Shown in pieces: positions 2,016 to 33,267 of a DNA stretch of 33,342 nucleotides. The DNA is from Candidatus Sumerlaeales bacterium. GTDB lineage: Bacteria; Sumerlaeota; Sumerlaeia; Sumerlaeales; Sumerlaeaceae. The notes under the pieces are model-generated. The model was given only the letters and a program-made list of their open reading frames with translations, had not been told where the DNA came from and did not search any database. The stretch covers positions 1-33,342 of the forward strand of contig JBBSQY010000037.1 in the NCBI GenBank assembly GCA_038243585.1, written 5' to 3'. How positions within the stretch are numbered: position 1 is the stretch's first letter; each line of letters starts with the position of its first letter. The position numbers and the translations under genes are program-made.

Positions 2016-4944
2016 TAATCAAAACGAATCCGGCTCCCGCACAAAACACCAGGTTTACATCCCGACCGCCACATACCGCCTTCAATTTAACCACGACTTC
2101 CGGTTCGATCAAGCGGAGCAATGGGCGGATTATTTCCAGCGCCTCGGCGTCAGCGATATCTATGCGTCCCCCATCTGGACGGCGCGAAAAGGCAGCATGC
2201 ACTGCTACGATGTGACGGACCATTCCCAGGTCAACGCGGACCTCGGTGGTGAAACGGCCTTCAAATCTTTTTCTAACGCCCTTAAAAGCCGAAACCTCGG
2301 CATGGTGGTAGACGTGGTTCCGAACCATATGGGAATTATGGACCCTTCCAATCGGCAATGGTGGGATGTTCTCGAGAACGGCTCCTGCTCTCCTTACGCT
2401 AATTTTTTCGACATCGACTGGAGAGCTTTCAAGGAGGAGCTGCATGATCGTGTAGAACTTCCGACCCTCGGCCAGCAGTTCGGGATTTGTCTCGAAAATG
2501 GTGAGTTCAAAGTTTCCTTTTCCGACGACGGCGAGTTTCTGGTGCATTACTATGAGACCGTCCTGCCGACCGGACCGCGCACATGGGTAAGGATTCTGCA
2601 GATGGTGCTGTCGGAATTGCAAATGAAAGTGACTGGCGACGACGACGACCTGATAGAGCTGGAAAGCGTGGTTACCGCCCTTGGCCACCTGCCGATGCGT
2701 GAGGATACTGACGAATGCCGCATCCGGGAGAGACAGCGGGAGAAAGAGGTTTGCAAACGTCGACTGCGAGCCCTCCTCAAGCAAAACGCGCTGGTCCGAG
2801 ATACAATTCATGCGGTGTTGGACGAGGTAAATGGGATCCCTGGCCAACCGGAATCCTTCGACACGCTGGAACTTTTTCTGGAAGATCAAACATACCGCCT
2901 CTGCTTCTGGCGCGTGGCGGGCGATGAGATTAACTATCGCCGCTTTTTCGACATTAACGAGCTGGCGGCTATTCGGGTTGAAAATCCCAGCGTATTCCAG
3001 CACGTCCATGCCCTTATTTTCAGCCTTATCCAAGCGGGTGATATTCGCGGCTTAAGAATTGATCATCCTGATGGCCTCCTAAACCCACCTCAATATTTTA
3101 CCGACCTTCAGAGAGGATGTCTGAACGCTATTGCCGGACAAGGTTTTGAATCTCCAAACCCAATTCCCGACTGCGAAGAAAGTCCGTGCGCTATGTGGGT
3201 CATCGCAGAAAAAATATTGGAACATAAGGAGCGGATTCGTCCCGACTGGGCTGTCCACGGCACCACAGGATATGAATTCGTAAACCTGGTCAATGGCGTC
3301 TTTGTCGATCAGAGAAAAAACAACGCATTTTTGAGCCTTTACAGCAAGTTTGTGGGCTCCGGTCCCAACTATGCAGAGCTAAAGACCGAGTGTAAAAAAC
3401 TCATCCTGGACAACAGCATGGCGGGCGAACTATACACGTTAGCTCGGAAGCTCGACCGGATTTCTGAAACGAATCGACGCACTCGCGATTTCACCCTCCA
3501 GACTCTGCAAGAAGCGCTGGCGGAGTTTATCGCAGCTTTTCCGGTGTACCGCAGTTACATCAGGCCGGACTCCACGAGCGTGGACGAGGACGACCGGTTT
3601 TATATTGAATCGGCTATTCGTATCGCCAAGCGCAGAAACCAGGCCACCGACCCGACTCTGTTTGACTTCATCGGGTCGATCTTGCTGTTAGACGGTCTTG
3701 ATGAACTACCGTCTAGTCAGAAAAAACAACATCTGGAATTTGTGCTGGCCGTTCAACAGATCACCGGCCCGGTGATGGCGAAAGGGTTGGAAGATACAGC
3801 CTTTTATCGGGATTTCCCTCTTTCATCTCTTAACGAGGTGGGCGGTGAACCGGAGCGTTTTGGAGTGTCTGTCACAGAATTCCACGAACGCTGTTCTGAA
3901 CAGGCGCGCCTGTGGCCTGCCAGCATGATCTCCACTTCGACCCACGACACGAAACGCGGCGAGGATGTGCGGGCGAGGATTAATGTTCTCAGTGAGATGC
4001 CCCGCGAATGGGAGCGGGCGATTTTCCGGTGGCGCCGGCTCAACAGCCGGCGCAAACATCAGGTGGAAGGCCATCACGTACCCACCGGCCGCAACGAGTA
4101 TCTGTTCTACCAAACTCTGTTGGGGATATGGCCACTTACTGAAGAGCCGGATACCAAGGAACTGACAGACCGAATGATTGCCTATATGATTAAGGCGACA
4201 CGCGAAGCCAAGGTGCTGACCAGTTGGGTAAAGGTAAACGAAGAATATGAAGCTGCTCTGAGCCAGTTTATTACGGAAGCGTTAGACCCAGTTAAGTCGT
4301 CTAAATTTCTGAATGATTTCAAAGACATGGCGCGGTTAGTCGCCCTCCGTGGAGCCAACAACTCCCTCAGCCAGGTTCTTATGAAATTGACTGCGCCGGG
4401 CGTTCCCGATTTTTACCAGGGAACTGAACTCTGGCGTTTCGATCTTGTTGATCCGGACAACCGCCGCCCCGTCGACTATGCGTTGCGCTCCCGTTTGCTG
4501 GAAGAAATTATCTCTCGGCAGGACGATCCGACTTATCTTGCAGACTTAATGTCCGGCTGGAAGGATGGGCGCATTAAAATGATGGTCACCCACAAAGGCC
4601 TCGCGTTTCGCCGCGCATACCAGTACCTGTATCAGTCCGGCGTTTATGTGCCTCTGTTTGCGGAGGGGCAGGCTGCCGGGAACGTTCTGGCTTACGCCCA
4701 GACCAAAGAAGATCAGCCATGGGCAATCACCGTGGTTCCACGCCTGCTGGCGGAACAGAACTTTCCGGAAGACCGCCTGATCGATGAAACGTTCTGGGGT
4801 GACACAACCCTGCGCCTGCCGGATAATGCTCCCACCCGGTGGCATAACATCTTCACCGGTGAGAGTTTTGAATCGAACGATCTGAAAATACCGATAAAGA
4901 ATCACTTGGGAGCGTTTCCCGTTGCCCTGCTGGTATCCCAATAG
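2008..4944 (+). CDS. treY: Malto-oligosyltrehalose synthase (GH13)
   Basis: IPTATYRLQF, YASPI, GSMHCYDVTD, DVVPNHM, INYRRFFDI, GLRIDHPDGL, EKIL, GTTGY, STHDTKRGED, PGVPDFYQG and LVDPDNRRPVDY are TreY signatures. ATG at 2008 follows AAAGGTG (ORF track starts at TTG 2005). Confidence 0.95.
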   Translation: MIDNQNESGSRTKHQVYIPTATYRLQFNHDFRFDQAEQWADYFQRLGVSDIYASPIWTARKGSMHCYDVTDHSQVNADLGGETAFKSFSNALKSRNLGMVVDVVPNHMGIMDPSNRQWWDVLENGSCSPYANFFDIDWRAFKEELHDRVELPTLGQQFGICLENGEFKVSFSDDGEFLVHYYETVLPTGPRTWVRILQMVLSELQMKVTGDDDDLIELESVVTALGHLPMREDTDECRIRERQREKEVCKRRLRALLKQNALVRDTIHAVLDEVNGIPGQPESFDTLELFLEDQTYRLCFWRVAGDEINYRRFFDINELAAIRVENPSVFQHVHALIFSLIQAGDIRGLRIDHPDGLLNPPQYFTDLQRGCLNAIAGQGFESPNPIPDCEESPCAMWVIAEKILEHKERIRPDWAVHGTTGYEFVNLVNGVFVDQRKNNAFLSLYSKFVGSGPNYAELKTECKKLILDNSMAGELYTLARKLDRISETNRRTRDFTLQTLQEALAEFIAAFPVYRSYIRPDSTSVDEDDRFYIESAIRIAKRRNQATDPTLFDFIGSILLLDGLDELPSSQKKQHLEFVLAVQQITGPVMAKGLEDTAFYRDFPLSSLNEVGGEPERFGVSVTEFHERCSEQARLWPASMISTSTHDTKRGEDVRARINVLSEMPREWERAIFRWRRLNSRRKHQVEGHHVPTGRNEYLFYQTLLGIWPLTEEPDTKELTDRMIAYMIKATREAKVLTSWVKVNEEYEAALSQFITEALDPVKSSKFLNDFKDMARLVALRGANNSLSQVLMKLTAPGVPDFYQGTELWRFDLVDPDNRRPVDYALRSRLLEEIISRQDDPTYLADLMSGWKDGRIKMMVTHKGLAFRRAYQYLYQSGVYVPLFAEGQAAGNVLAYAQTKEDQPWAITVVPRLLAEQNFPEDRLIDETFWGDTTLRLPDNAPTRWHNIFTGESFESNDLKIPIKNHLGAFPVALLVSQ

Positions 4945-4948
4945 CGCG

Positions 4949-4984
4949 AAAAAACCCGGCTCAGATATCAATCTGAGCCGGGTT
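4949..4984 (-). terminator. Rho-independent terminator between convergent treY and peptidase genes
   Basis: Perfect 14-bp stem AACCCGGCTCAGAT (4953-4966) / ATCTGAGCCGGGTT (4971-4984) with a 4-nt loop. The A-run at 4949-4954 gives a U-tail on the minus strand. Confidence 0.85.
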
Positions 4985-5012
4985 CCAACTTATAAAGTGC
5001 TAGAGTTTCTGA

Positions 5013-6629
5013 TTAAGGCTCTGTCACCTTCACTCCGGAGAACGTAATTCCTCTGCTCCCCTGCCCTGGAGCTGGAGATTCTTTGAAAGCGCCGTTGTAG
5101 AAAACTCCGCAATCGCCGGAGTCATACCCCTTCACGTTTTTTTCCGTATGAAAAGGCTTTCCGTCCAACTCGTAGCTGACTGTTGAGCCGTTGCAGGTGA
5201 TGGCAAACTGGTGCCAGCCGCTTTCTTTTAAACGAAACCGCTTATCTCGGTAATCATCAATACCGCCGTTCAAAATGTTCCCGGCGCGAATGCTTCCATC
5301 GTCCGAGTCGAATGCCATTGCCAGGCTGTACCCTATTTCTACCTCGTCCTTAGTATCCGCAGCATGCTGTCCGTTGTCCCGGGCGAAAAGCCCCACGCGT
5401 TCCCAGCCGTCAGCTTTCTTTCTTTTCCGAAGTTCACACCAGACCCATGCTTCGATTCGATAATCTGTCCAGTCTGGTGATCCCAGCCAGGCGGTATCCG
5501 TCTCCGTGCCAGACGTTAGCAGCCGGAAGACCGGTCCCGCCACTGGAGGCGCAGTGGTAAAGTCGTCGGCAACCTCAACCTTGCCATACCGGGCTTCCCA
5601 CGGCAACGTTGGCTGTCCCGCCTCCGGGCTGGCGATCAGGGGAAGCTTCTGCTCAGGACGGTCTTTCGGCAGCACAATCATTCGCACGCCCATATTCCGG
5701 TGACCGGGACCCGCTAGCCAGTGGGTACCGAACCAGTTGCCGTCTCCGTCCACCAGGTTGTAGTACTCGAGCACGGTGGTGGTCTTGGAAACATCAGGCG
5801 CCTTTACGCGGAAAGTCACCACGCGCGTTGTTTCAGGGGCCAACGCCGACAACGAGTCCGTCACCCGGTCCGGCCCAAGCCATCCCTCGGCCATTATGCT
5901 CTCCAGGGCACGGGTCGGAGAACTATCCGGATCTACGGGCGACAAGAAAAGTTTTTCCGGCCATGCCTGCCGGCCATTGTTTACCAGCGTAAACGAAACT
6001 TCAGCGTCTTCACCCGAAGTCAGTTGCAGGTTGATCGTCTGCTCCAGTGGAAACCCGTCCGGGCCAATGGCAACCCCACTTAGAGGCGGCGGCTCTGGAA
6101 AAGGCTCTGGCCGTAAAATGACGCCGCCGCGCCACAGCAGGTCATCCCAGTCCACCACCTTGTGGTCGCCGCCCAGTTTGGGGCTAAAAGATTCTGCAGT
6201 TGGATTGTTTATAATAACCCGACCATCGTCTGTGTATCCGACTGCCAGAACAAAATGCCCGTGACGCCCTTGGTTGACCCCGAGAATCACGGGCCGCCCC
6301 ATGTCGAGCTCGTGCTTAACAGTGTCATGGGTCCAGCCCAGGTTGTGCCAGCTGGGCAGGGCGTAAAGCCCGTATTGCCTGGCTATCTCCGGCGCGTTGA
6401 AGCGGTTGTATTGACAATACTTATGTAGTTCCTGCACGGTTTCTGGAGAGAAATCATCGATGCGCCCCATAAAATCGAGCGCCATCATAAATGAAGTCGG
6501 AAAGCAGGTCTGGTTGTCCGGTTGAGACATATATGCCACCGGCAAATTGATGCCGGCGTTAATATTTCCAGCCAGGGACAACAAACTTGCAGCGGCAGCA
6601 AAGCATAAAAATTTTGACACGGACGGCAT
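5013..6629 (-). CDS. Secreted C39-like (papain-fold) cysteine peptidase with Ig-like and ConA/DUF1080-like beta-sandwich domains
   Basis: Signal peptide; Q-x5-C (SQPDNQTCFPTSFMMAL), GHFVLAVGY and INNP give a Gln/Cys/His/Asn set; FTLVNNGRQAWP...APETTRVVTFRVKAP resembles an NBR1-type Ig-like domain; C-terminal WTDYRIEA...GWHQFAITCNG...ELDG...FSGVKV. SD GAGAGG. Confidence 0.75.
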   Translation of the reverse strand: MPSVSKFLCFAAAASLLSLAGNINAGINLPVAYMSQPDNQTCFPTSFMMALDFMGRIDDFSPETVQELHKYCQYNRFNAPEIARQYGLYALPSWHNLGWTHDTVKHELDMGRPVILGVNQGRHGHFVLAVGYTDDGRVIINNPTAESFSPKLGGDHKVVDWDDLLWRGGVILRPEPFPEPPPLSGVAIGPDGFPLEQTINLQLTSGEDAEVSFTLVNNGRQAWPEKLFLSPVDPDSSPTRALESIMAEGWLGPDRVTDSLSALAPETTRVVTFRVKAPDVSKTTTVLEYYNLVDGDGNWFGTHWLAGPGHRNMGVRMIVLPKDRPEQKLPLIASPEAGQPTLPWEARYGKVEVADDFTTAPPVAGPVFRLLTSGTETDTAWLGSPDWTDYRIEAWVWCELRKRKKADGWERVGLFARDNGQHAADTKDEVEIGYSLAMAFDSDDGSIRAGNILNGGIDDYRDKRFRLKESGWHQFAITCNGSTVSYELDGKPFHTEKNVKGYDSGDCGVFYNGAFKESPAPGQGSRGITFSGVKVTEP

Positions 6630-6775
6630 TGTTATAGCCTCTCTAATTTTTCCAATTTAAAAATAATTTCGTCATCATGAGGCGGGAGTGTCAAATCCTT
6701 CCTGCTTTCTTCATTACACAGATTGCATTGCAGTCCAACGCACAGAACGACCAGCATCGACCGGGAGAGTAGAAA

Positions 6776-8458
6776 ATAAAAAGCCATTTTAAGCTGCACC
6801 CACGGCTCACTCGACCATCATTCTGGTTCACTGCAGCCCTGATTATCCGCCTGCTCTACCTGCTGGAACAGGGCGGAACGTCTCCCCTGTTTTACCAGCC
6901 CATGCTGGACGAGCGTGAGGCTGTCGATTCTGCCAGATCAATTATCAGCGGCGTGACTGACGGTGAACCCTGGTTTAAGGCGCCTGGCTACTCTTGGATC
7001 ATGGCTGCCATAATGAGCTTAAGCGGCGAGGCATGGCCGTGGACGGTTCGCGCAGTGCAGCACCTGGCGGGCGCCTGGGTGGTTGGCATGGTCGCCTGGC
7101 TCGCTGGCCTACTTTCACCCGCTGGAGGTCGGCGCAAGGTTGCCATTGCTGTCGCCGGATTTCTCGGCGCCGTGTATGCGCCGCTTATCCGGCTTGAAAA
7201 TAATCTATCGCTGGACTTCTGGGCCGTATTTTTTCAATCGGCGATGTTGTGCGCCCTCGCCGCTTTAACGGCCCGATTTCGCTCTCGCCCACGCAGCCGC
7301 GAGGCCGCTTATGCCGGATGCCTCGCCGCCGCTGCCTGGCTGGTCAGACCAACCATTACCGTCGCACTCCCGTTTCTGGCGTTATGGTTGGTTATTATTT
7401 CGTTTAACCCAGCTCAGAAGAAATCACATCGAATCCTTCGCCCGGCCATAATCTTTCTTCTCCCGATCATATTTGCAGCAACCGCAGTTACAATGCGCAA
7501 TTTCACGGTTTCTGGCGAAGTTATGACGATGCCCTGGCAAGGGGGCTACAGCTTTTACTACGCGAACCACCCTGCCGCTACTGGCCGTTATTTTACGCAG
7601 AGCAAGTTAGCGGAAACGTCTGATCCAAACCCAACACACTACCTGGCGATCGAAGGCTACAGGAATAGCTTGAGCGATGCAGACAAAGCTGCTTTTGACC
7701 GCGCACCCCGCTACGGTGCTGTCAACGAGTTCTGGTTCCAGAGTGCCAACGCGGCTATTCGCTCCAACCCTCTCGCATGGGCCAGGCTAATGGCACAAAA
7801 AGGAATTTATCTTTTTAGCGATAAAGAAATTTTTAACTATGAAGAATTCGACCTTCAAAGGGATCTCTCCTCCATCCTCCGCTGGCTTCCCGGGCGGTTT
7901 GGTGTTGTATTTCCTCTCGCGATGGCCTCTTTTGCTACCCTGACTTTTGTTCCATTCCGGCGGCGGCGCATCCATCAGCTGGTGTTTATTTACATGGTCG
8001 CCCTCAGTGCCGGGATCGCTCTTTATTTTGCGAGCGGGCGGATGCGTATGCCGCTGGCTTTCCCGCTGATTGCGCTGGCGGGATATTCGGTTGCCGGATT
8101 TTCTCACCTGAAAATGCCGCGAAAGCTCGTCGCGCTGGTCCTGCTGCTGGCGGGCGTCATATTATCATGGGGAGACTGGTGGGGCGTGCTCAGTGAAAGT
8201 ATGGCTCATGTTGATCTCGGGCGCATGAGCAACGCCGCCTGGCATAAAGGCGACTACAGGCAGGCGCTGGACTTTGCTGTAGACGCGGAAAAGCTTTCTC
8301 CGAATTACCCTGGGCTGCCGCGCTTGAAGGGACAGGCCCTTTACAACCTGGGCCGCTTGGATGAAGCGAGAACGGAATTTCAGCGGTCCGTCGACCTTCT
8401 CGGGGACGAAACATCTCGCAGGAACCTGAAAGTCATTGACGCAGAGCAAGCCCAGTAG
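6776..8458 (+). CDS. GT-C fold membrane glycosyltransferase (ArnT/PMT-like) with C-terminal TPR; start uncertain (ATA 6776 vs ATG 6902)
   Basis: Many hydrophobic helices, DE motif (PMLDE), F-x-x-PGY, VRPT, RMRMP and a TPR tail (KGQALYNLGRLDEARTEFQR). The frame stays open upstream of ATG 6902 and encodes TM1 (FWFTAALIIRLLYLL) back to an in-frame TAG at 6770-6772. Confidence 0.75.
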   Translation: MKSHFKLHPRLTRPSFWFTAALIIRLLYLLEQGGTSPLFYQPMLDEREAVDSARSIISGVTDGEPWFKAPGYSWIMAAIMSLSGEAWPWTVRAVQHLAGAWVVGMVAWLAGLLSPAGGRRKVAIAVAGFLGAVYAPLIRLENNLSLDFWAVFFQSAMLCALAALTARFRSRPRSREAAYAGCLAAAAWLVRPTITVALPFLALWLVIISFNPAQKKSHRILRPAIIFLLPIIFAATAVTMRNFTVSGEVMTMPWQGGYSFYYANHPAATGRYFTQSKLAETSDPNPTHYLAIEGYRNSLSDADKAAFDRAPRYGAVNEFWFQSANAAIRSNPLAWARLMAQKGIYLFSDKEIFNYEEFDLQRDLSSILRWLPGRFGVVFPLAMASFATLTFVPFRRRRIHQLVFIYMVALSAGIALYFASGRMRMPLAFPLIALAGYSVAGFSHLKMPRKLVALVLLLAGVILSWGDWWGVLSESMAHVDLGRMSNAAWHKGDYRQALDFAVDAEKLSPNYPGLPRLKGQALYNLGRLDEARTEFQRSVDLLGDETSRRNLKVIDAEQAQ

Positions 8459-9646: not shown

Positions 9647-11260
9647 ATGAACTATATGTCAGTCCTGAGGGGCCTCGTTATCGTTACGCTTTTTGCAATC
9701 GCAAAAATTAGCGATGCTCAAGCGACCATAAATTCTTACCTCAACCCCTTGGACGTCTCTGTTGCAGACCCCTTTATTCTAAAAGATGACGGGACCTACT
9801 ACCTCTATGGGACAACCTATGACTCGAATGGGTTTGCCGTTTACACGTCGACGGACCTAGTACACTGGACCCGCCGCGGCCTATGCTGGCAAAAAACAGC
9901 ATTAACCTGGGGACAAGGCGACTTCTGGGCACCGGAAGTAATGAAGGCCGGCAGCACTTACTACTTCTATTACACAGCTTTTAACCCGGCGTCGAATCAG
10001 CGCAACATATGTGTCGCCACTTCAAGCTCGCCCCTGGGGCCTTTTACAGATGTCAGCACCCCCATTCTCCCCACCACAAGCCCTTACATAGATGGTCATC
10101 CCTACCAGGACCCGGCAACCGGAAAACGGTATCTTTACGCGACACGCGACGGCAGTTCCCCTTCAGCCATTGTTGTAACTGAACTTGCCAACCCACCGAT
10201 CGCCACAACCGGGCCGTTACGAAATATCATGACCGTAAGCCAGCCTTGGGAAGGAAGCTGGGTTGAGGCGCCCTTTATCATCCGACACAACAACTGGTAT
10301 TACATGATGTACTCTGCGCGGTGGTTCTGGGAGAGCGAGTATTCCATAGGCTATGCCACCTCAACCAGCCCGCTGGGGCCGTGGACAAAATCATCTATCA
10401 ACCCCATAATAGCGAAGACGTCAACAGCATCGGGGCCCGGTCATAACAGCGCGATATTGTCTCCGGATAACACGGAATTATTTACCGCCTACCATACCCA
10501 CCTGACTTTCGCGGGCGGCGGGGCTCGACAGTTAGCTATTGATCGCCTGGAGTTTACACCACACCCCACGCCGGGTCAGCCCGCCTTCCTCGCGCTGAAA
10601 GCAGGCTCTCCCACGACTAATTTCCAACCGCTACCCTCGGGGGCTCTACCTCGCGCTGCCGGCGTTAGTGACGATTTTCAAGCTGCTGCTCTTGATAGGA
10701 CCCGCTGGAACACCTTCGGTGAAGACGCCGCCCGGTGGAGCCTTCAGTCCGGACAGCTTGCAATAGAGACGCAGAACGGCGATTTGTATAGCGACCGCAC
10801 AGATGCGCATAACTTATTTTTGCAGTACGCGCCCTTAGATGATTTCAGTATGGAAACTCGCCTTAATTTCGCGCCCACTTCTAACTATGAGCAAGCCTTC
10901 CTGATTTTGTGGGAAGATCAGTCAAATTATATTAAACTGGGCAGCCTGTTCGGAGGAGGATCCGTCATTGAAGCCTCCGTAGAAAAAGCAGGCCAATATT
11001 CTGGAGTGACAATTACCAATACGTGGGGAAACAACGTCCGCTTGAAGATTGAACGCCGCGGCAGTAAATGTTACTGCTATGTGGGCAACGTAAGCGATCA
11101 AAACTGGTTGCCAGTCGGCTCACCGATAACTTTTTCAACGTTGCAACCGCAAGCAGGCATTGGAGCCTTTTCTCCAGTGAGCGGCGCAGTAAGAACCGCC
11201 CGCTTTGATTATTTTAACCTCATCTACACTTCCGCTGTAACTGATTGGCAACTCTATTAA
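9647..11260 (+). CDS. Secreted GH43 glycoside hydrolase with C-terminal ConA-like domain and SAVTDWQLY tail
   Basis: Signal peptide; catalytic set ADPF (Asp base), IDG (Asp pKa modulator) and VEAP (Glu acid); FWAPEV, SPLGPF, GPGHNS; DDF...W start of a beta-sandwich domain. Confidence 0.9.
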   Translation: MNYMSVLRGLVIVTLFAIAKISDAQATINSYLNPLDVSVADPFILKDDGTYYLYGTTYDSNGFAVYTSTDLVHWTRRGLCWQKTALTWGQGDFWAPEVMKAGSTYYFYYTAFNPASNQRNICVATSSSPLGPFTDVSTPILPTTSPYIDGHPYQDPATGKRYLYATRDGSSPSAIVVTELANPPIATTGPLRNIMTVSQPWEGSWVEAPFIIRHNNWYYMMYSARWFWESEYSIGYATSTSPLGPWTKSSINPIIAKTSTASGPGHNSAILSPDNTELFTAYHTHLTFAGGGARQLAIDRLEFTPHPTPGQPAFLALKAGSPTTNFQPLPSGALPRAAGVSDDFQAAALDRTRWNTFGEDAARWSLQSGQLAIETQNGDLYSDRTDAHNLFLQYAPLDDFSMETRLNFAPTSNYEQAFLILWEDQSNYIKLGSLFGGGSVIEASVEKAGQYSGVTITNTWGNNVRLKIERRGSKCYCYVGNVSDQNWLPVGSPITFSTLQPQAGIGAFSPVSGAVRTARFDYFNLIYTSAVTDWQLY

Positions 11261-14202: not shown

Positions 14203-14346
14203 TCCCTTCAGATCAATAAATAAGTTAGCCTGCGTTTAAGTATCATTAAGAGGTGAAAGCTCGTCAATTTTGTGATTGTTATACGGCGGGAATTTTATCA
14301 ATAATGATTGGACTTCCCGCATGAAGTCAGAAACTCTTTCCTCTCA

Positions 14347-15360
14347 ATGAAGAATTCCGGAAATCCCTCTGCGGATCTTATATTAACCGGCCAGACGGAA
14401 CGCATTGCCTCCGTATGTCCCTCGACCGTGGTGCGCGTCATGGCCAGGGTCACCGTGGTCGCCACCTTTATTTTGCTTTTAGCCGGGGCCCTTGTGACCG
14501 GAAATAAGGCAGCCATGTCAGATCCCACGTGGCCCACGTTTGTGGGGCACGTGGTGCCTAAGTACTGGGCAGGCGGGCTGAAATATGAAGATAGCCACCG
14601 CCTTATCGCAGGTTCTGTAGGAATTCTTACGCTCATCCTCGCGATTTGTATCCAATTTAAAGACCCGCGCCGTTTCATGATACGGCTTGGCTGGTCAGCC
14701 TTTGCGCTGGTCGTCGTTCAGGCATTGTTTGGCGGCCTCATCATCAAAAGCATGCGTCACCCGGCCATATCCATGATTCACGCATCTTTGGCCCAGGCCT
14801 TTTTTTGTGTTACAATTGCCATCGCCGTGTTGACCAGTACCTCCTGGTTCCGTGATCTGGCCACTTCTCAGGTTTTGCGCCAGTCAAACCGCGGTTACCT
14901 ATCACTGATGAAATTTACGGTCTTAGTAGTTTACCTCCAGGTCATCATGGGCGCGGGTGTTCGCCATTCCAATGATTCCACGGATATGTTTCTCCCCTAT
15001 CTACTCGCACACATCGCTGGAGCCTTTGCGGTAATCTGCACTGTCATCTGGTTTAATCTGCGCACATGGCATATTTACCGCGATGTTACTCCCCTGCGTA
15101 GAACCGCTATATGGGCTGCGTCGATCGTCCTTTATCAGATTGTTTTCGGCATCCTTTCCATTTTCGCGAACCGGGCGAGACTCCAGCCTGAAATGGCGGA
15201 AACTTTTCACGTTCTGGTATCCACTGCCCATCTGCTGGGTGGCGCGACACTGCTGGCGCTGATGCTTGGGTCCACCATTCGCGCCTATCGGATTCTCGAT
15301 CGTTCCACGCCTGGACCTTCCCCGGGTCGGGCCTATCAATCCCAGGAGATGCCCGCATGA
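14347..15360 (+). CDS. ctaA: Heme A synthase (CtaA/COX15 family), lacking the loop cysteine pair; start uncertain
   Basis: About 8 TM; EDSHRLIAG (E-x-x-HR) plus conserved His in IHASLA, LAHIAGA and TAHLLGG; ATGA overlap with ctaB. ORF track starts at TTG 14308; first in-frame ATG is 14347. Confidence 0.85.
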   Translation: MKNSGNPSADLILTGQTERIASVCPSTVVRVMARVTVVATFILLLAGALVTGNKAAMSDPTWPTFVGHVVPKYWAGGLKYEDSHRLIAGSVGILTLILAICIQFKDPRRFMIRLGWSAFALVVVQALFGGLIIKSMRHPAISMIHASLAQAFFCVTIAIAVLTSTSWFRDLATSQVLRQSNRGYLSLMKFTVLVVYLQVIMGAGVRHSNDSTDMFLPYLLAHIAGAFAVICTVIWFNLRTWHIYRDVTPLRRTAIWAASIVLYQIVFGILSIFANRARLQPEMAETFHVLVSTAHLLGGATLLALMLGSTIRAYRILDRSTPGPSPGRAYQSQEMPA

Positions 15361-16268
15361 ATAACGAAGCTCTAGCACCCCAAATCAATGATTCAGCGAC
15401 AGCAATTGCTAAAACATCAGTGCTTCGCGACATAATGGTATTAGTCAAACTCAGGATGGGATTTCTTGCCGCAATAATTGCCCTGGCCGGTTATTACATG
15501 GGATCAGTAGGCGCGGTCAGTTTCACGGGAATGCTCCATGTGTTTTTTGGCACCTGGATCGTTTGCGCAGGTGCCTTCCTTTTAAATATGCACATGGAGC
15601 GAGACATCGATGCGCTCATGAGAAGAACCAGCGACAGGCCTCTGCCGACCGGCCGAATGGCTGCTACCCCAGTATTAATCGCCGGACTGATTACCAGCGT
15701 ATTTGGGCTTGCCTACCTGGCCCTTACCACCAATTTTCTGGCAGCTGCCGCAGGCGCCGTTGCATTATTCGGGTATGTTTACGTCTACACTCCCCTTAAA
15801 CGCGTTACCACATTAAACACAATTGTGGGCTCTTTTCCAGGTGCCATGCCCCCGATTATAGGATGGGCGGCAGCCTCCGGCGAAATTACCAGCGGCGCCA
15901 TTGTCATGTTTATGATCCTGTTCCTGTGGCAGGTTCCTCACTTTCTTGCACTGGCGTGGATGTATAAGGACGACTACCGCGAAGCCGGTTTCGTGATGAT
16001 AACCGCCGACGATGAAGACGGAAGCTTTACAACCCGGCAAAATCTGATCTACGGGATCGCATACATCTTTATGACTTTTCTTCCTGTCGCCTTTGGGCTT
16101 GCCGGTTATTGGTATCTCGCCGCGGCGGGACTCTCTGGAATCGGGTTTATCTGGCTTTGCCTTAAGTGGTATGCCCACCGCGAACGCGCCAACGCTGTTC
16201 ATGTTTTCGTGGCCACGCTTTTTCACTCGCCGTTGATCTACATCATGATGGTCATAGATAAAGTGTAA
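15357..16268 (+). CDS. ctaB: Protoheme IX farnesyltransferase (heme O synthase, CtaB/CyoE)
   Basis: ERDIDALMRRTSDRPLPTG, YTPLKR, GSFPGAMPPIIGW, LWQVPHFLALAW, DDYREAG. SD AGGAG. Confidence 0.96.
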   Translation: MNNEALAPQINDSATAIAKTSVLRDIMVLVKLRMGFLAAIIALAGYYMGSVGAVSFTGMLHVFFGTWIVCAGAFLLNMHMERDIDALMRRTSDRPLPTGRMAATPVLIAGLITSVFGLAYLALTTNFLAAAAGAVALFGYVYVYTPLKRVTTLNTIVGSFPGAMPPIIGWAAASGEITSGAIVMFMILFLWQVPHFLALAWMYKDDYREAGFVMITADDEDGSFTTRQNLIYGIAYIFMTFLPVAFGLAGYWYLAAAGLSGIGFIWLCLKWYAHRERANAVHVFVATLFHSPLIYIMMVIDKV

Positions 16269-16320
16269 TTAACAAATCCCCGCAGACGTCGGCGCGGACA
16301 GAAATATTTCACGCAACATT

Positions 16321-17109
16321 ATGGAAAATAATAATATGTCGTCATCAAATCAGGACCCGTTAAACCCACAGCATAGTCAGGCTGAAAGCACAGAAGCGGA
16401 AAACCAGCGGATTGCCCGGCGTCGATCGATAATGCCTCGCCTTATCGGTGGCTCTCTTATATTTTTTGTATTAATAGCCCTAATCGGCGCGGCGCTGTTT
16501 CAACAATTACGCAAGAAGCAGGTGCCTCCTCCCCCGCCCATTCTGGGTCAGGTAAGCGCACCTACTTTTACGGATGAAACCAATACTTCTTTTTCTATCA
16601 CCCAACTGGACGGTCGCATCTGGGTAGCCGATTTCATCTTCACCCGCTGCGGCACCCAGTGCCCTGTGATGACGTTTAACATGAAGAAGCTGCAAGACTG
16701 GCTTATCGAGAACGAACAGGGAAACGTGAAGTTGGTTTCTCTTACGGTGGATCCAGAAACCGACACTCCGGACGTAATGCGCCAATATGCCCGATCGGTT
16801 AAAGCCGACGAAGGAAGATGGCATTTTTTAACTGGTGACCGCCAGACTATCTATGATTATATTATTAAAGAATTTAAGCTGGGTGCAGACGAAAACGAGG
16901 GCCAGTCTGTGGCTGATATGTTTGTACATAGTGACAGGTTTGTTCTCGTAGATCGCGACCGCAATATCCGCGGCTATTATTCCGGGCAAGACGACGTCGC
17001 TCTTGAAAAACTACGCAACGATATTGTTAGCATTTCACGGGATGGCGAATCTGCCACTGGAAACGTTGGCATACCGCGAATTACCTTCAACGGTCCAATT
17101 ACAAAGTAA
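16321..17109 (+). CDS. SCO1/SenC family copper chaperone
   Basis: N-terminal TM anchor; FIFTRCGTQCP (CxxxC), TVDPETDTP, WHFLTG, conserved His in HSDRFVLVD, IRGYY. Confidence 0.93.
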   Translation: MENNNMSSSNQDPLNPQHSQAESTEAENQRIARRRSIMPRLIGGSLIFFVLIALIGAALFQQLRKKQVPPPPPILGQVSAPTFTDETNTSFSITQLDGRIWVADFIFTRCGTQCPVMTFNMKKLQDWLIENEQGNVKLVSLTVDPETDTPDVMRQYARSVKADEGRWHFLTGDRQTIYDYIIKEFKLGADENEGQSVADMFVHSDRFVLVDRDRNIRGYYSGQDDVALEKLRNDIVSISRDGESATGNVGIPRITFNGPITK

Positions 17110-17540
17110 TGGCATTTTCCCCATCAGACCTCCCTGCTATAAATGCAGTCCTTAACAGCGTCAGTACTGTATTCATTGTCGCCGGTTGGATTAACATCTT
17201 ACGAAATAATAAGCGCACCCATGCCGCCTGCATGATCGCCGCGTTATGTACATCGTCAGTTTTTCTTGTCGGTTACCTGGTGCACAAGTACTATAATGGT
17301 ACCACCAGATTTACCGATCCGGCCTGGGTGCGACCATGGTATTTTTTGCTGTTGTTTACTCATCTGGTGCTGGCTATTGCAATTGTTCCACTTGTGATCA
17401 AAACGGTTTACCACGCCTCGCGGCGTCAGTGGGATAAACACCGGCGCATCGCCCGTTGGACAATGCCAATCTGGCTATATGTCTCCGTAACTGGAGTGCT
17501 TGTCTACTTTACCCTCTATCAGTGGTTTCCTCAGCACTAA
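17109..17540 (+). CDS. DUF420 membrane protein (CtaM/YozB-like oxidase assembly factor)
   Basis: 4 TM; LPAINAVLN, HAACM, FLVGYL, THLVLA, HRRIARWTMPIWLYVSVTG; TAATG overlap with the SCO gene. Confidence 0.92.
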   Translation: MAFSPSDLPAINAVLNSVSTVFIVAGWINILRNNKRTHAACMIAALCTSSVFLVGYLVHKYYNGTTRFTDPAWVRPWYFLLLFTHLVLAIAIVPLVIKTVYHASRRQWDKHRRIARWTMPIWLYVSVTGVLVYFTLYQWFPQH

Positions 17541-17754: not shown

Positions 17755-19683
17755 TTATTTTAGTGAGTCGCCGTCCGCAGAAAGACTGCCGATGGTTTCG
17801 AAGGAGCTATCCACTTGACCCTCAACACCGTCGGGAGCAGGGAGCAGAAGATTATTAGGATAGTAATTCCGAGGGTCCATATCCGCCTCGAAGCGGTGAT
17901 GAGATTCCCGCTGATCCACGGAATCATCAAAGAAGTAATCAGGTAAGTCCCAATGTGCGTCGATGCGGGTATACTTGTAGTTCTCAGCGGGCGTCAGCTG
18001 TGGCGCCTTAATGATGTGAGGAGTTACGAACAACATAAGGTCGTTCTTTTCATGGGTCTTATTGTCATTTTTAAAGAACCATCCGAGCACTGGTGCCTTG
18101 GCAAGCCACGGAAACTCCCGCCTTGAATCCGACGCACTGATCTGCCGCAGGCCGCCGAGGACAACCGTGTCTTCATCTTTAACAATTACGTTTGTCTCGG
18201 CTTTTCTCGTGTCGATGATCGGGATATTTAAAAATGAGCCATTCAAAATTTCCTGCATTGGCTCAAGCTTCATGCGCACATAGCCATTATTTGTAATCAC
18301 AGGCAGAACAGCTAAGCGAACGCTGGATTGCTTGAATTCCACATTCTGAATTGTGCTCCCCTGCGTAGGTCCCTGTCCGGTTTCTACATAAGGATTGTCT
18401 CTGATAATTTCGATGTTGGCTTGCATGTTATTAAGCGTAATAACACGTGGATTCGCAATGGTATTGACAACTTTTCTATTCTCCAGGCCATCCAGCGCAA
18501 GACCAATGTTAAAGTCACTGCCAAGAATTGAAAAAACGCCACCAAAACCGAGACTTGGGTTACCGCTGTTGCCTAGCATGCTCATTAGTCCGTCAACCGG
18601 GTTTATGCCTCCGGCTCCGTCAACCTTCAGTATAGGGCTATTTCCGCTGCTATCTAGCTGAGTAACATTGAGATTTGAACCAAGGTCACGACCAACAGTA
18701 AGGAGCAACTCCACCATGCGGGCCTCAATCATTACCTGTTTTTCGGGCACGTCGAGTTGCGCTACAAGGTCGCGGATAACCGCGATATTTGAAGCTGAAT
18801 CGGAAATGATAAGCGTATTGCTTTCGGGATGAGGGTGAATTTTTCCACCCGTGCCACTGACACTGGAAAGGGCCGTTTGAAGCGTAGCAGCCTCTACCCA
18901 ATTCAGCTTGATATAAACGGTACGGAAATCACCGGTGACCCCCGGCTTGACTTCCTGACGCTTGGCAATACGCATAACGTTTTCGCCCTCACGGACGATC
19001 GCCAGATCCTGAGTAGACAGGAGGCTTTGCAGCGCCACGCCCAGGGGAACATCGCGCAGGTTCAGTGTGATTCTACCAGCGATTACGCCTTCACCATAGA
19101 CGAAGTTTAAATCGGCGCGCTCCGCAAGCAAGCGGATCACCTCTTCCACGTCGGTATCGGCGGGAGTGCTGATGTTTACCCGGCGGTTATAAACTTCCTC
19201 GCCGAGAATTCCGATCAACTTGTTATCGGTGCTGGATTGGGCAACATCATTAGTTTCCGTAACAGTAGGCGGTAAAAATGCCCCAAACTCTTGACCACCT
19301 TCTGTGCGGCCGGTTTCGAGGCCAGCGGTATTGGCCCGCAAGTAGGGATTGTTCTGAGCTTCCTGCAAGGACGGTAACGCGTCATCGCCCATGGCAGACA
19401 AGGGAAGCAGCGTATCGGCACCAGGTTGCGGTAACGGAGACGGGACCGCACTGTCGAGATCGGCTGGAATGCCGGCTTCTCCCAGCGGGGCGCCTAGTTC
19501 CTGTGTTCCCGTTGTCGTGGTCGTTGTAGTCGTAACTGCTTCCATGGAGGAGATTGAAGCCTCATCAATGGGTGTTGCCGGCGACAAACTGCTCTGCGCA
19601 AGCGCGACATGCGCATTCAACGCGATCAGGAACGGAGCGGCTACGGCCGCGGCAACGGGGACACTTAACCAATTTTTGCGCAT
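17755..19683 (-). CDS. pilQ: Outer-membrane secretin, PilQ-like
   Basis: ATG 19683 with SD AAAGGAAG; signal peptide; N0 (RITLNLRDVPLGVAL), N3 (ESNTLIISD...LDVPEKQVMIEARMVE), secretin core (NPRVITLNN, DTVVLGGL, PWLAKAPVLGWFFK, LMLFVTPHII). Last gene of the pilMNO operon. Confidence 0.85.
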   Translation of the reverse strand: MRKNWLSVPVAAAVAAPFLIALNAHVALAQSSLSPATPIDEASISSMEAVTTTTTTTTGTQELGAPLGEAGIPADLDSAVPSPLPQPGADTLLPLSAMGDDALPSLQEAQNNPYLRANTAGLETGRTEGGQEFGAFLPPTVTETNDVAQSSTDNKLIGILGEEVYNRRVNISTPADTDVEEVIRLLAERADLNFVYGEGVIAGRITLNLRDVPLGVALQSLLSTQDLAIVREGENVMRIAKRQEVKPGVTGDFRTVYIKLNWVEAATLQTALSSVSGTGGKIHPHPESNTLIISDSASNIAVIRDLVAQLDVPEKQVMIEARMVELLLTVGRDLGSNLNVTQLDSSGNSPILKVDGAGGINPVDGLMSMLGNSGNPSLGFGGVFSILGSDFNIGLALDGLENRKVVNTIANPRVITLNNMQANIEIIRDNPYVETGQGPTQGSTIQNVEFKQSSVRLAVLPVITNNGYVRMKLEPMQEILNGSFLNIPIIDTRKAETNVIVKDEDTVVLGGLRQISASDSRREFPWLAKAPVLGWFFKNDNKTHEKNDLMLFVTPHIIKAPQLTPAENYKYTRIDAHWDLPDYFFDDSVDQRESHHRFEADMDPRNYYPNNLLLPAPDGVEGQVDSSFETIGSLSADGDSLK

Positions 19684-19699
19684 TGGTCTGCTTCCTTTC

Positions 19700-20761
19700 T
19701 TAATTGTTTGCCCCAGAGGGGCGAACGGGTAGATCAAATATTTTTGTTAATCCAGACTGCACTACTTCAATTTGCACTACACTATCAGAGATGCTGATCA
19801 CTCGGTGACCTGCTTCGCTCCGAATTTCTTCTCCCACACGATAGGCTTTTCCGCCTATCATTGCACGGTTTCCCGATGCGTTCGCAGGATCAACAATGAC
19901 GGTACCCACATTAATATTAGGGCTTAACTCGACAGTTACAGTTGTTGCTTCCACCGGGGCGGCAATTACAGGCGCGGGCGCCTTGTTTATGTCATCAAGC
20001 TTGGCCAATATTGCCTTCGCCTGAAGTGCATGGTCACTATCGGGGAAATCCATAATAATGCCCAACATTTCCTGGCGTCCTTCGTCCACCTTGTTCTCGC
20101 CCAGCAAGCTTACTGCTTTGTCGAAGCGTTCCTGAAGGAGTTTGGCCTGGCGAATCCATGGCACGATCATAGGGTCAGGCATAGGGGTGTCATCTACTAT
20201 AACCCGATAGACTACGGTCGGTTCTTCACCTTTTAGTCGCTTAACGGCTTCGACGTCGAACAAGGTGTTAGAGGTATTTTCGTCCAACTCGAGTCCGCCG
20301 GCAACAGCAGTTTTGCTCTCCCTTTGCAGACCCAGCATTCGAAGAAGTTCAACCCCGCTCTTTACAGCCACAGTTTCGGTTGTCTCGCCTTCTTGTAGAA
20401 CCGCCTGATCCTGGTCAATCTTGACCGAAGGTTCAGTTGCCACGGCCTGTTCGGTCTGTAGAGTGCTGTCTTCGGTACTCTTCATTGAGGTTCCGGGGGC
20501 CGGCACTATTCTACGGGCGGCGTCGTCTGCGGATTTGTCCTGTTTTAGACCTGTGGAGCCGGTCTCACCTTCTCCTGATCCAGTTTCTATAGGAGCGGTA
20601 GTCGCCTGAACGCTGGTTTGCGTAGGCGTTGTCAGTACGTCTATTTCAATTTGAGCGACAACGCTTTGCGTATGACAAAAACTCGATATTACCAGCCCGA
20701 AAGCAAGGGCGGAAAATCCTCGCCATGTTTTGGAAGGAGTAGAATGAATTATGTATGACAT
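19700..20761 (-). CDS. Periplasmic PilP/GspC-like protein with TPR-like insert (pilP position)
   Basis: Lies between pilO and the secretin; signal-like N-terminus; PDPM (RDPF-like); helical pair FDKAVSLL...IIMDFPDSDHALQA; C-terminal RAMIGGKAYRVGEEI...RVISISDSVVQIE beta-domain. Start ATG 20761 or TTG 20773. Confidence 0.55.
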   Translation of the reverse strand: MSYIIHSTPSKTWRGFSALAFGLVISSFCHTQSVVAQIEIDVLTTPTQTSVQATTAPIETGSGEGETGSTGLKQDKSADDAARRIVPAPGTSMKSTEDSTLQTEQAVATEPSVKIDQDQAVLQEGETTETVAVKSGVELLRMLGLQRESKTAVAGGLELDENTSNTLFDVEAVKRLKGEEPTVVYRVIVDDTPMPDPMIVPWIRQAKLLQERFDKAVSLLGENKVDEGRQEMLGIIMDFPDSDHALQAKAILAKLDDINKAPAPVIAAPVEATTVTVELSPNINVGTVIVDPANASGNRAMIGGKAYRVGEEIRSEAGHRVISISDSVVQIEVVQSGLTKIFDLPVRPSGANN

Positions 20762-20769
20762 ATGCTCAA

Positions 20770-30950: not shown

Positions 30951-30977
30951 AGAAATAGCCTCCGGGTAATTGACGCA

Positions 30978-31611: not shown

Positions 31612-33135
31612 TTAGTAGACGCTCCAGTCACTTACGGCTGACCCTACGACTTTAAAGAAATCCGGTGAGAATGGATCCGTCATGTTTACGTATTCGACGG
31701 CTTGGTTTGTCACGGTAGGGTCCAGGTTAATAACACCCGTACCAACGGTTGGCGGAGTACGCAATGCATTGGCACCAGCCGTTGATAAAATGGTGTTGGA
31801 AACATTAACGGTTCCCGTCCCGTTGTTGACGATGCCGTGTTTATCGTTTCCCGTAAATACGCTGTTGGTGATATTCAAAATACGGTTCGACGCCAGAGCT
31901 AGATAAATTCCGCCCGGCGTTGCGCCGCTTCCAGCATTATGAATAACAAGGTTATCCATGGTGATCGTCCCGGACGCTTCGCCATTTGGGGGTAATGCGC
32001 CGCTTGCAGCCAGGCGTATACCATCGTCAAGGCCATTAGCGATCACGGTATTGGTCACAGAATTTACAAACGCGCGGGCAAGGACTTCTGAAATGGCGTT
32101 GCCGGTAATATTAAAGAACCGCGCATAGTTAACGTTGACTGCAGTTGGCTGCGTTGCGCCAGTGGTATCGGAACCGTTGTAAATGGTTTGCGCTCCCAGG
32201 ATTTCCCGAAAGACGACCGGGTTGCTGGCCGTACCATTCACATTAACAATGCCGCCGTAAGGATTCTGAATGGCGCGTCCATCAATATTGGCAAATACAC
32301 ACCCCTCGTTGATATTAACAGTGCAGTTAATCAGATCTGAGGTCGTGCCGTTCATGTATGCAATAATTCCATCGGCGTTGTGACCGGCCGAAACTGAGGA
32401 AAACGACGCGATGACAGTGTTCTTTAAGTTTAGGGTAAGATCGCCTCTTTCAAATCGGGATAAAGCCCAAATTGCATCACCTTTGTCTCCCAGTGTGACT
32501 ACGCCAGACGCATTCAAATCCGGGGCGGGCTCGCGACCGGTAGTAACTATTGGCAAGTTGCTACCATTGTTGGATGTAAGCACACAATTCTCAAGATTAA
32601 CCGTGAGGTCATCGGAACTGGTAGGTGACTTTATAAGCAACAACCCACGCATCGTAGCATCCGTAGGCACAAATGCGATATTTTTGAGAGTTAACACGCC
32701 AGCCTGACGCCAGGCAAAGGACGGCCTCACAGGAGGACTGTTCACTGAATTGGTCTCACGAAGCACCTGTTCGCCGTTCTGCAGAGGCTGACCCGCTAAT
32801 GTAGCCAGACCACCGGCACCCTGAATCGTCATATCGCCCGCGATAGTCATAGCTGCGGTGGGATGTTCGATATCGGCGTTTACTTTATCAATTACGGGTG
32901 TGCCGGGGGCAATATTAATGACGTTAGCCGCAATATTTCCCGCATTAGATCCCGTTCCGGTGGCAAAGCTGGCAACCGCGTCGTGAAGCGTATTAAAAGT
33001 TGTTGTGCCGTTGGGCGAGGCATTGGCCGCGTCGACTGTAACAGTTTGCCCGGATGAAGCGCCTGCAATACAAACTGCCGCAATAGCCCCACCCCACGTG
33101 AGAGCATTGCTTCTAAAAAAATGTTTTGAGATCAT
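31612..33135 (-). CDS. Secreted right-handed beta-helix (pectin-lyase-like fold) protein with SAVSDWSVY tail
   Basis: ATG 33135 after AAGGGG; signal peptide; TVTVD...FNTLHDAV...VINIAPG start typical of beta-helix proteins; Asn/Gly/Thr-rich repeats (LTLKNIAF, VNLENCVL, LNLKNTVI, ININEGCVF-like, NITNSVFTGN). Confidence 0.75.
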   Translation of the reverse strand: MISKHFFRSNALTWGGAIAAVCIAGASSGQTVTVDAANASPNGTTTFNTLHDAVASFATGTGSNAGNIAANVINIAPGTPVIDKVNADIEHPTAAMTIAGDMTIQGAGGLATLAGQPLQNGEQVLRETNSVNSPPVRPSFAWRQAGVLTLKNIAFVPTDATMRGLLLIKSPTSSDDLTVNLENCVLTSNNGSNLPIVTTGREPAPDLNASGVVTLGDKGDAIWALSRFERGDLTLNLKNTVIASFSSVSAGHNADGIIAYMNGTTSDLINCTVNINEGCVFANIDGRAIQNPYGGIVNVNGTASNPVVFREILGAQTIYNGSDTTGATQPTAVNVNYARFFNITGNAISEVLARAFVNSVTNTVIANGLDDGIRLAASGALPPNGEASGTITMDNLVIHNAGSGATPGGIYLALASNRILNITNSVFTGNDKHGIVNNGTGTVNVSNTILSTAGANALRTPPTVGTGVINLDPTVTNQAVEYVNMTDPFSPDFFKVVGSAVSDWSVY

Positions 33136-33267
33136 TACAAGATTCCCCTTACCTTTCAAATTGTGTATCGCTACTAGAGAATACATGCAAATTATATTAC
33201 AAATCTGCATTCCAGTACTCTAGACCACAAACAAGCGCAATTAAATTAACAAATCAAAAAGATAATA

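Follow-up and report, generated by a model that had tools for sequence, protein, structure and literature searches.

A nine-residue C-terminal tail on unrelated exported proteins of two bacterial phyla is a candidate envelope sorting tag

The window analyzed here is a stretch of 33,342 nucleotides, contig JBBSQY010000037.1 (C37) of a Candidatus Sumerlaeales bacterium whose 3.43-Mb genome assembly (GCA_038243585.1, called G000 below) consists of 99 contigs and is 89.7% complete. Two genes of the window, one for a family 43 glycoside hydrolase (GH43) and one for a beta-helix-like protein, are unrelated along their length and end in nearly the same short peptide, and this shared C-terminal tail is the subject of the present analysis. 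The two carriers (P0001 and P0002), their probable signal peptides and the two copies of the tail lie as follows.

9647..11260, plus strand: GH43 glycoside hydrolase P0001, 537 residues (PF04616, 5.7e-53; PF17851, 2.7e-13; PF07081, 1.2e-10)
9647..9724, plus strand: probable Sec signal peptide of P0001, read from the translation, MNYMSVLRGLVIVTLFAIAKISDAQA followed by T
11228..11260, plus strand: tail copy 1, T-S-A-V-T-D-W-Q-L-Y and stop codon TAA, a 10-residue add-on after the last ConA-like strand
31612..33210, minus strand: beta-helix-like exported protein P0002, matching no known family, carrier of tail copy 2
33040..33135 (approximate limits), minus strand: probable signal peptide of P0002, from translation and alignment, MISKHFFRSNALTWGGAIAAVCIAGASSGQ followed by TVTVD
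31612..31644, minus strand: tail copy 2, G-S-A-V-S-D-W-S-V-Y and stop codon TAA, with W529 and Y532 invariant and low model confidence at residues 525-532

Both tails lie where a sequence-only reading of the window had placed them, each ending its open reading frame (ORF; 9647-11260 and 31612-33210). Positions 11231-11260 of the plus strand read TCC GCT GTA ACT GAT TGG CAA CTC TAT TAA (S-A-V-T-D-W-Q-L-Y-stop), and positions 31641-31612 of the minus strand read TCA GCC GTA AGT GAC TGG AGC GTC TAC TAA (S-A-V-S-D-W-S-V-Y-stop). As that reading had also stated, six of the nine residues are identical, the T/S and L/V exchanges are conservative, and differing but synonymous codons encode S, A, D and Y in the two copies; hence the likeness lies at the level of the peptide and is not that of a DNA repeat. 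Its assignment of N-terminal signal peptides to both proteins is plausible, since Sec-type segments can be read from the two translations. The P0001 segment combines a basic residue with a hydrophobic core and a site of the A-x-A type, is positive by the lax heuristic used below, and is probably cleaved directly after the peptide listed above. For P0002, the true start is probably Met26, at 33135, because the N-termini of aligned homologs begin near this residue; the A-x-A-Q-T/VTVD junction is conserved among the 10 aligned sequences and marks the probable site of cleavage.

The two carriers differ in what precedes the tail. The C-terminal domain of P0001 is ConA-like according to its Pfam profile matches. 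P0002 matches no family in Pfam or NCBIfam. Its AlphaFold2 model, built on a 10-row alignment, is an all-beta repeat with a predicted local distance difference test score (pLDDT) of 77.6 and a predicted template modeling (TM) score of 0.82. Foldseek matches to this model are confined to right-handed beta-helix carbohydrate enzymes and tailspikes, and they are weak (best E-value 1.6e-3, TM-score ~0.3). Because residues 525-532 have a pLDDT below 50, the tail does not appear to be packed on the fold, and the model presents it as exposed and free.

Comparison with homologs identifies the tail as a discrete addition to otherwise complete proteins. The ConA-like domain of P0001 ends ...ARFDYFNLIY immediately before TSAVTDWQLY, which is the point at which a tail-less third GH43 paralog of G000 (C74:8798-10426) stops; this paralog has a signal peptide and ends ...TARFDWFRVK. 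The tail is present in 16 of the 120 best database homologs of P0001 (P0001 itself counted), including the 11 closest, at 52-100% identity, and the tail-less homologs end no more than a few residues away from this strand (...ARFD[YW]F...). For P0002, all six database homologs have the tail or a near variant. In an alignment of 10 sequences of this family, three paralogs included, that are 24-63% identical to P0002, only six columns are invariant, W529 and Y532 among them. Judged from this alignment, the tail is under selection, its Trp and Tyr having stayed invariant while the rest of the P0002 family diverged.

The tail can also take the place of other C-terminal elements. In an S8/P-domain set made up of the 120 best homologs of a tagged subtilase (L007), it directly follows the P domain in 12 proteins, 4 of which have an extra E or Q, and many of the next relatives have at its place a hydrophobic stretch with basic residues. 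When 10 of these anchor-type ends were compared with NCBIfam, 4 passed the PEP-CTERM model TIGR02595 (19.0-24.2 bits, cut-off 16); the other 6, transmembrane-plus-basic ends, gave sub-threshold matches to MYXO-, IPTL- or PVV-CTERM models or none. Exchange of C-terminal anchors within one protein family is how sorting signals have been recognized, as in the "choice-of-anchor" families of NCBIfam. Two more recurrent ends, ...RFYR[VI]xxP and ...RF[IL]RL[RK]V[ST]R, were seen in distant S8/P-domain relatives from other phyla, where they may close further C-terminal sorting domains. A Pro/Gly/Ser-rich linker ahead of the tail was considered and dropped, the composition at positions -20 to -10 being near the average of the proteins.

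The tail is by no means limited to the two proteins of the window. Among the 22,926 six-frame ORFs of G000 (minimum 60 residues), 38 end in [VI].[DNE]W..[YF], compared with 0.33 expected by chance from the internal rate of this pattern (43 matches at 2,953,819 internal positions). A greedy pick of non-overlapping ORFs yielded a gene set of 2,669 genes that covers 90% of the DNA. The ending [STA]-x-V-x-D-W-x-[LIVM]-Y-stop is found in 47 of these ~2,669 genes, and in a further 8 one extra polar residue follows the Tyr (E, D, Q, N, N, E, K or H); 4 carriers are cut by contig ends. Across the 47, position -9 is S, A or T and position -4 is W without exception, position -7 is V in 38 and I in 6, position -5 is D in 32, N in 5 and E in 3, position -2 is L in 26, I in 8 and V in 7, and the last residue is Y in 46 and F in 1. 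The motif is tied to the C-terminus, because 44 of its 76 matches in the gene set are exactly terminal and 8 stop one residue short of the end (the remainder lie 4-12 residues, in 3 cases, or at least 30 residues, in 21 cases, from the C-terminus). The 8 carriers with an added residue indicate that the carboxylate of the terminal Tyr is not strictly needed. The stop codon TAA is more common in tail genes (36 of 47) than in other genes (1,201 of 2,622; odds ratio 3.9, p 2.5e-5), an excess that may reflect selection against read-through of a terminal tag, or high expression.

The carriers have little in common apart from this ending. Full-length BLAST sorts the 47 proteins into 26 clusters, and the 100 residues preceding the tail form 30 clusters, 23 of them singletons; hence the tail is not the end of one shared domain. 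Pfam matches were found in 28 of the 45 carriers scanned and none in the other 17, and the matched families are mostly extracellular-type enzymes: two GH43 proteins (that of the window included), two subtilases, one trypsin-like protease, one M12 metalloprotease, four NAGPA phosphodiester glycosidases, two GHL10 proteins, two Amidase_3 proteins, two Exo_endo_phos proteins and four LTD proteins. Golvesin_C occurs in eight carriers, fn3 and BACON modules are also represented, and BNR, ice-binding-like, Metallophos, FAD oxidoreductase, CBM96 and PIG-L families have one member each.

Carriers are strongly enriched in predicted signal peptides, as the sequence-only reading would have it. Under a strict heuristic, 25 of 43 carriers and 400 of 2561 other proteins are positive (odds ratio 7.5, p 3.8e-10), and this rule misses several plain signal peptides that are readable in its own output. 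Under the lax heuristic, 37 of 44 plus 3 of 4, that is 40 of 48 tailed proteins, are positive, compared with 994 of 2621 of the rest.

For scans of whole genomes, the tail was probed with a 24-base DNA pattern, GTNNNNGAYTGGNNNNTNTAYTRA, which has 27 matches in G000. Among 75 species genomes of the same phylum (Sumerlaeota/BRC1; families f1-f18), 40 contain the pattern, and the reversed pattern gave 2 matches in total. The earlier reading had linked similar endings to this phylum, and correctly so. With G000 left out, the positive genomes number 11 of 12 in f1, 2 of 3 in f9, 3 of 3 in f10, 4 of 4 in f11, 1 of 1 in f12, 6 of 11 in f13, 9 of 11 in f15, 1 of 1 in f17 (9 hits), 1 of 7 in f8 and 1 of 7 in f16; no match was found in f2-f7, f14 and f18. 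The tag can vary within a family, as in f13, where one genome (G036) has 8 matches and another (G041) has 0. In a tag-negative genome of the phylum (G069), no recurrent substitute ending was found in a small sample, namely 300 kb (196 ORFs) and 5 GH43 loci.

A stricter 30-base pattern was scanned against one genome each of 185,579 species, and 80 of the 82 stretches matched were listed. With at least 99 open codons required upstream, 49 of the listed matches are in frame, and all lie in two phyla. By record label, 29 of them belong to Candidatus Sumerlaeota, Sumerlaeales or BRC1 and 4 to Omnitrophota, and 16 are called "bacterium" only. Five of the records labeled Sumerlaeota or BRC1 have matches at coordinates identical to those in G058, G044, G064, G061 and G029, which identifies the phylum of G000 as the one so labeled. 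The other 31 listed matches, in named Bacillota, Bacteroidota, Proteobacteria and others, are read as chance because every one has an in-frame stop within 91 codons. The 20 in-frame matches outside Sumerlaeota map to 14 genomes (6 of the matches placed by identical isolate label), all in a single phylum of 35 genomes (4.1-8.4 Mb), of which 33 contain the pattern, compared with one control match. Going by a label, this second phylum is probably OLB16/Hinthialibacterota. In the excerpted text of PMC9324843, OLB16, once placed in Omnitrophota, is Candidatus Hinthialibacterota, a degrader of complex organic matter.

The claim that the tail fits none of the described sorting signals is borne out as well. 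Searches of 21 tail ends against NCBIfam at E-values up to 10 returned no sorting model, the sole match being an irrelevant, weak one to AcrIF11, and Pfam and NCBIfam scans of whole carrier proteins gave no sorting-signal match. Neither the LPXTG model TIGR01167 nor the PEP-CTERM model TIGR02595 matches these 21 ends, and the tails have no helix and no basic cluster. That the TIGR02595 test works is shown by four tail-less S8 relatives, which this model scores at 19-24 bits. Of the processing enzymes, sortase (PF04203) and exosortase (PF09721) each have 0 matches in the G000 assembly (89.7% complete). The type IX secretion system (T9SS) domain PF18962 was found in none of 45 carriers (E-value up to 1e-4) and not in the genome (E-value up to 0.01, where the control is weak). 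The features of GlyGly-CTERM (Gly-Gly, transmembrane helix, basic end) are absent from the tails, which have no such match in NCBIfam; rhombosortase itself was not searched for. Two models of very short motifs proposed as sorting signals, in this respect like the tail, gave 0 matches in G000 (NF053834, ultrashort_CTERM) and one sub-cut-off match away from any tail (NF050076, sort_motif_YLP), and both are weak discriminators, because their controls match in 10-11 of 14 unrelated genomes. No description of such a tag was found in the literature on Sumerlaeota secretion, C-terminal sorting signals and choice-of-anchor families, supplements being outside the scope; the excerpted main text of the Sumerlaeota comparative paper PMC8092238 does not contain "C-terminal" and uses "secretion" once. 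A C-terminal tag under selection thus exists on unrelated exported proteins of two phyla only, and it is in no catalog. The sequence-only description of a lineage-specific, undescribed signal is therefore supported; the function suggested there, in export, surface attachment or docking, is one that we likewise infer.

The nearest known systems share some properties of the tail and lack others. Like the signals of sortase, exosortase, rhombosortase and MYXO-CTERM systems, it is one short, lineage-restricted C-terminal signature on many unrelated proteins with signal peptides, and, as with these tripartite signals, other anchors can stand in its place among members of one family. Unlike them, it has neither a hydrophobic helix nor a basic cluster, spans 9-10 residues and ends in Tyr. 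The C-terminal domain of T9SS cargo (PF18962/TIGR04183), which directs outer-membrane passage and surface attachment, is also a C-terminal label on many secreted hydrolases; it is, however, a folded domain of ~70-100 residues, whereas the tail consists of 9-10 unstructured residues. Outer-membrane proteins end in Y-x-F, the beta-signal of the beta-barrel assembly machinery, with an aromatic terminal residue. The tail has a terminal aromatic residue too, but its carriers are soluble enzymes rather than beta-barrels, and its hydrophobic positions -1, -2, -4 and -7 do not alternate.

Another parallel may be found among the cargo of type IVb pili. The export signal of CofJ reportedly belongs to the same class as that of TcpF. 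In the excerpted text of PMC10120004, TcpF docks on the minor pilin TcpB by its disordered terminal segment, a proven export signal that is read by a pilin and is itself proteolysed on secretion. Signals of this type are there described as short disordered terminal peptides with a critical Tyr on a Sec-exported folded protein, which then passes through a secretin. The tail resembles the TcpF signal in being free in the P0002 model and in the genomic link of its genes to pseudopilin genes (see below); a disordered terminal segment is likewise suggested by the low pLDDT in P0002 and by the occurrence of the tail after 30 unrelated regions. The TcpF and CofJ signals are, however, N-terminal, with one cargo per system and a minor pilin from the pilus operon, whereas the tail is C-terminal, has ~50 cargoes, and would contact a pilin only by proposal.

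G000 has the machinery that such a route would require. Two Omp85 proteins indicate that the organism is diderm, and three secretins are encoded: a PilQ-type protein in the window, a GspD-type protein on contig C45, and a large ORF on C32, in which the secretin domain (~28562-29182) lies inside an open frame of 1,692 residues, unusually large for a secretin. There are four long GspE/PilB ATPases, and C45 holds a second ATPase/platform set at 4030-7922. The principal loci are the following.

Window 17755-19737, minus strand: PilQ-type secretin, with PilM/N/O/P-like genes
Window 20770-21336, minus strand: PilO; the cluster also holds unnamed proteins of 289 and 357 residues
Window 22205-23374, minus strand: PilM, in the cluster 17755-23374
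G000 C45:11740-24382: complete operon like that of a type II secretion system (T2SS; L143, L144), with GspE, GspF, three pseudopilins, a GspK-like protein, a PilM/PilN-fused GspL-like protein, a GspM-like protein, a 222-residue protein, and GspD with three Secretin_N domains

The window cluster has, at the place of PilP, a protein roughly twice as long as usual, for which Pfam yields no match even at E-values up to 0.1. The 222-residue protein of the C45 operon occupies the GspC position and comprises a transmembrane segment, a Pro/Thr-rich linker and a small HR-like domain. With Sec-exported carriers, as judged from the enrichment in signal peptides, and a complete T2SS in the same organism, the carriers have what substrates of such a system need.

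The genes that adjoin the tail genes provide a further connection. Genes for GspG-like pseudopilins (200-260 residues) are adjacent in 7 of 47 cases, compared with 9 of 315 other long signal-peptide genes (odds ratio 5.95, p 0.0018) and with 49 of the 2,182 genes that remain. The seven adjacent pseudopilins are members of a single family of 25, of which two more members adjoin genes with tail-like ends plus 1-2 residues. Adjacency recurs for 2 of 20 tail genes in another genome of the phylum (G058) and for 3 of 17 in a genome of the second phylum (G078), and apart from generic regulators and ABC ATPases, pseudopilins are the only neighbor family to recur in all three. GspG-like pseudopilins with an enlarged globular domain (conserved LTTPxSYL ... 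GPD ... YDATNGTxSxG) are greatly expanded, with 25 members in G000 and 12-48 matches per relative. A complex prediction pairing the globular part (residues 38-239) of one pseudopilin (L134) with the last 60 residues of its tailed neighbor (L018) scored 0.00, below the mark and run without controls, and speaks neither for nor against binding.

By analogy with many-to-one tags and choice of anchor, we infer that the tail is a sorting signal; that its reader is part of the type II secretion machinery is suggested more weakly. Carriers would first use the Sec pathway to cross the inner membrane. The tail, [STA]-x-V-x-[DNE]-W-x-[LIVM]-Y-COOH, sometimes followed by one polar residue, would act as a portable address tag, standing as an exposed, unstructured peptide after whichever domain closes the protein. 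A component of the envelope would read it and send the carriers, folded hydrolases and binding proteins, to the surface or into the medium. The tail may dock on the pseudopilus (endopilus) apparatus, the cargo then being pushed through the secretin, as in the docking of TcpF on TcpB. The type II route is favored because it is the only route found in G000 for exporting proteins in folded form through the outer membrane, because pseudopilin genes are the sole recurrent neighbors of tail genes, and because a disordered terminal peptide read by a pilin exports TcpF (excerpted text of PMC10120004). We therefore tentatively prefer, as a reading that is quite possible and short of probable, an envelope sorting tag most likely read by a type II secretion or type-4-filament apparatus. 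The narrower proposal, a linear, portable export signal with ~50 cargoes that the type II machine itself reads, probably via a pseudopilin, is possible but doubtful.

Several observations weigh against a reader in the secretion apparatus. The distribution of secretion genes across genomes does not follow that of the tag. GspG-like pseudopilins (TIGR01710) fail as a reader that follows it, being present in 75 of 75 phylum genomes with 18 to at least 47 matches each, and so does the globular domain of the pseudopilin family that adjoins tail genes, found in 75 of 75 genomes with 12-48 matches each, tag or none. Secretin (PF00263) is likewise present in 75 of 75 and, if anything, less abundant in tag-rich families (1-13 matches per genome, ~3 in f1, and 7-13 in f4, f7, f8 and f16); this anticorrelation with tag count has a rho of -0.42 at the level of genomes and is not upheld at the level of families (rho -0.22, p 0.37). 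Long matches to the minor pseudopilin of the T2SS operon (L139) occur in 36 of the 40 genomes with the tag and in 12 of the 35 without it, an association that may reflect phylogeny alone; in the second phylum, detection is limited to its N-terminal helix, in 11 of 35 genomes, and this pseudopilin was rejected as a shared reader on both counts, the globular part being undetected there. A PDZ-bearing GspC was rejected too, as the protein in the GspC position of the C45 operon has no PDZ domain. Further, no pseudopilin gene adjoins 40 of the 47 tail genes. A PIG-L/LmbE-type deacetylase (L040, C65:12821-13591) has the canonical tail TTDVTDWELY and no signal peptide in its ORF call; its gene lies two genes away from that of another tailed protein. 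The gene and signal-peptide calls in general are crude heuristics of this analysis. Finally, the PEP-CTERM and membrane anchors of relatives are of a retention type and suit anchoring as well as export.

The last of these points leads to the main rival, in which carriers leave the cell by general export and the tail then serves for surface retention or docking, held non-covalently by a surface receptor, scaffold or glycan. The anchor-type relatives favor it equally: in the S8/P-domain proteins, the tail sits where relatives have PEP-CTERM or transmembrane-plus-basic anchors. It would also accord with the failure of secretion genes to follow the tag and with the nature of many carriers, which degrade polymers, have binding modules (Golvesin_C, LTD, fn3, BACON, CBM96) and could benefit from attachment to the cell. 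The distribution of exosortase (PF09721), found in 9 of the 75 phylum genomes, hints at anchoring systems that replace one another, because all 7 genomes of the tag-poor family f8 (G013-G019) have it; the two other occurrences are among the 12 f1 genomes other than G000, and its absence from most other tag-negative families renders the complementarity partial. No candidate receptor or scaffold was found, however, only pseudopilins recurring beside tail genes, and nine residues with neither lipid nor covalent chemistry would make a weak anchor unless a dedicated receptor existed. We consider retention somewhat unlikely.

An improbable alternative is that the tail marks carriers for processing or quality control, its C-terminus being bound by a periplasmic PDZ protease or processing peptidase of the HtrA/DegP or Ctp/Prc type, which would trim, activate or degrade carriers that linger in the periplasm. 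PDZ domains bind hydrophobic or aromatic C-termini, as in DegS, DegP and Prc. The motif is at the extreme C-terminus with the hydrophobic-Tyr end that such domains bind (44 of 52 near-terminal motifs stop at Tyr or Phe and 8 add one polar residue), and G000 encodes four ordinary-looking PDZ proteins. Proteolysis of the TcpF export signal on secretion, in the excerpted text of PMC10120004, would also be in keeping. Yet an E, Q, D, N, K or H after the Tyr is tolerated in 8 G000 carriers and an extra residue in 4 of the 12 S8 carriers, PDZ proteases are near-universal whereas the tag occurs in two phyla only, and the conserved V at -7 and D at -5 exceed what a generic hydrophobic-end degron would require.

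Aromatic residues are typical of contacts with carbohydrates and membrane interfaces, and the Trp/Tyr pair could itself bind a glycan or the membrane interface with no machine to read it. The invariance of both residues and the action of many carriers on glycans would fit such an intrinsic role, but the strict C-terminal place and the conserved V and D would be superfluous for it, the carriers include proteases, nucleases/phosphatases and proteins with no assigned fold, and restriction to two phyla would be odd for generic binding; this is less probable still. That the tail has no function, arising by chance, as a DNA repeat or as the last strand of a shared domain, has the shortness of the motif and nothing else in its favor, and has virtually no likelihood in the face of 38 endings where 0.33 are expected, the synonymous codon differences, the 30 unrelated preceding clusters, 40 positive genomes compared with 2 reversed-pattern matches, and the in-frame stops upstream of all 31 matches outside the two phyla.

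The remaining genes around the two carriers were also surveyed. Two of them lie side by side upstream of the GH43 gene, have no tail and show no evident link to the tag.

5013-6629, minus strand: C39-like cysteine peptidase, exported, that also has Ig-like and ConA-like domains, tail absent
6902-8458, plus strand: multi-pass membrane protein that has TPR repeats at its C-terminus, tail absent

Directly downstream of P0002, on the same strand, are genes for a GntR regulator, an ABC ATPase and two ABC-2-type membrane proteins (26978-31376, minus). Elsewhere in the window are GH57/DUF3536 and alpha-amylase-family genes (1-4944) and a set for haem A and cytochrome oxidase assembly (14308-17540; CtaA, UbiA-type CtaB, SCO1, DUF420).

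New envelope machines, among them sortases, exosortases, rhombosortase and the type IX system, have on several occasions come to light through C-terminal sorting tags. To our knowledge, every cataloged tag is either a motif with a membrane helix or a folded domain; the tag described here is nine residues and nothing more, so that its reader must work in another way. Substrate recognition by the T2SS is otherwise thought to be conformational. Selection of folded substrates by this system is called elusive or poorly understood in the excerpted texts of PMC7949064 and PMC10120004. If the reader is indeed part of type II secretion, then the tag would be the first many-cargo linear signal for this pathway, and would supply both a peptide for pull-down and a transferable reporter tag with which to study substrate choice. 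The tag can be converted into an annotation model, and it marks, from sequence alone, the likely set of surface and secreted enzymes of two uncultured, polymer-degrading phyla.

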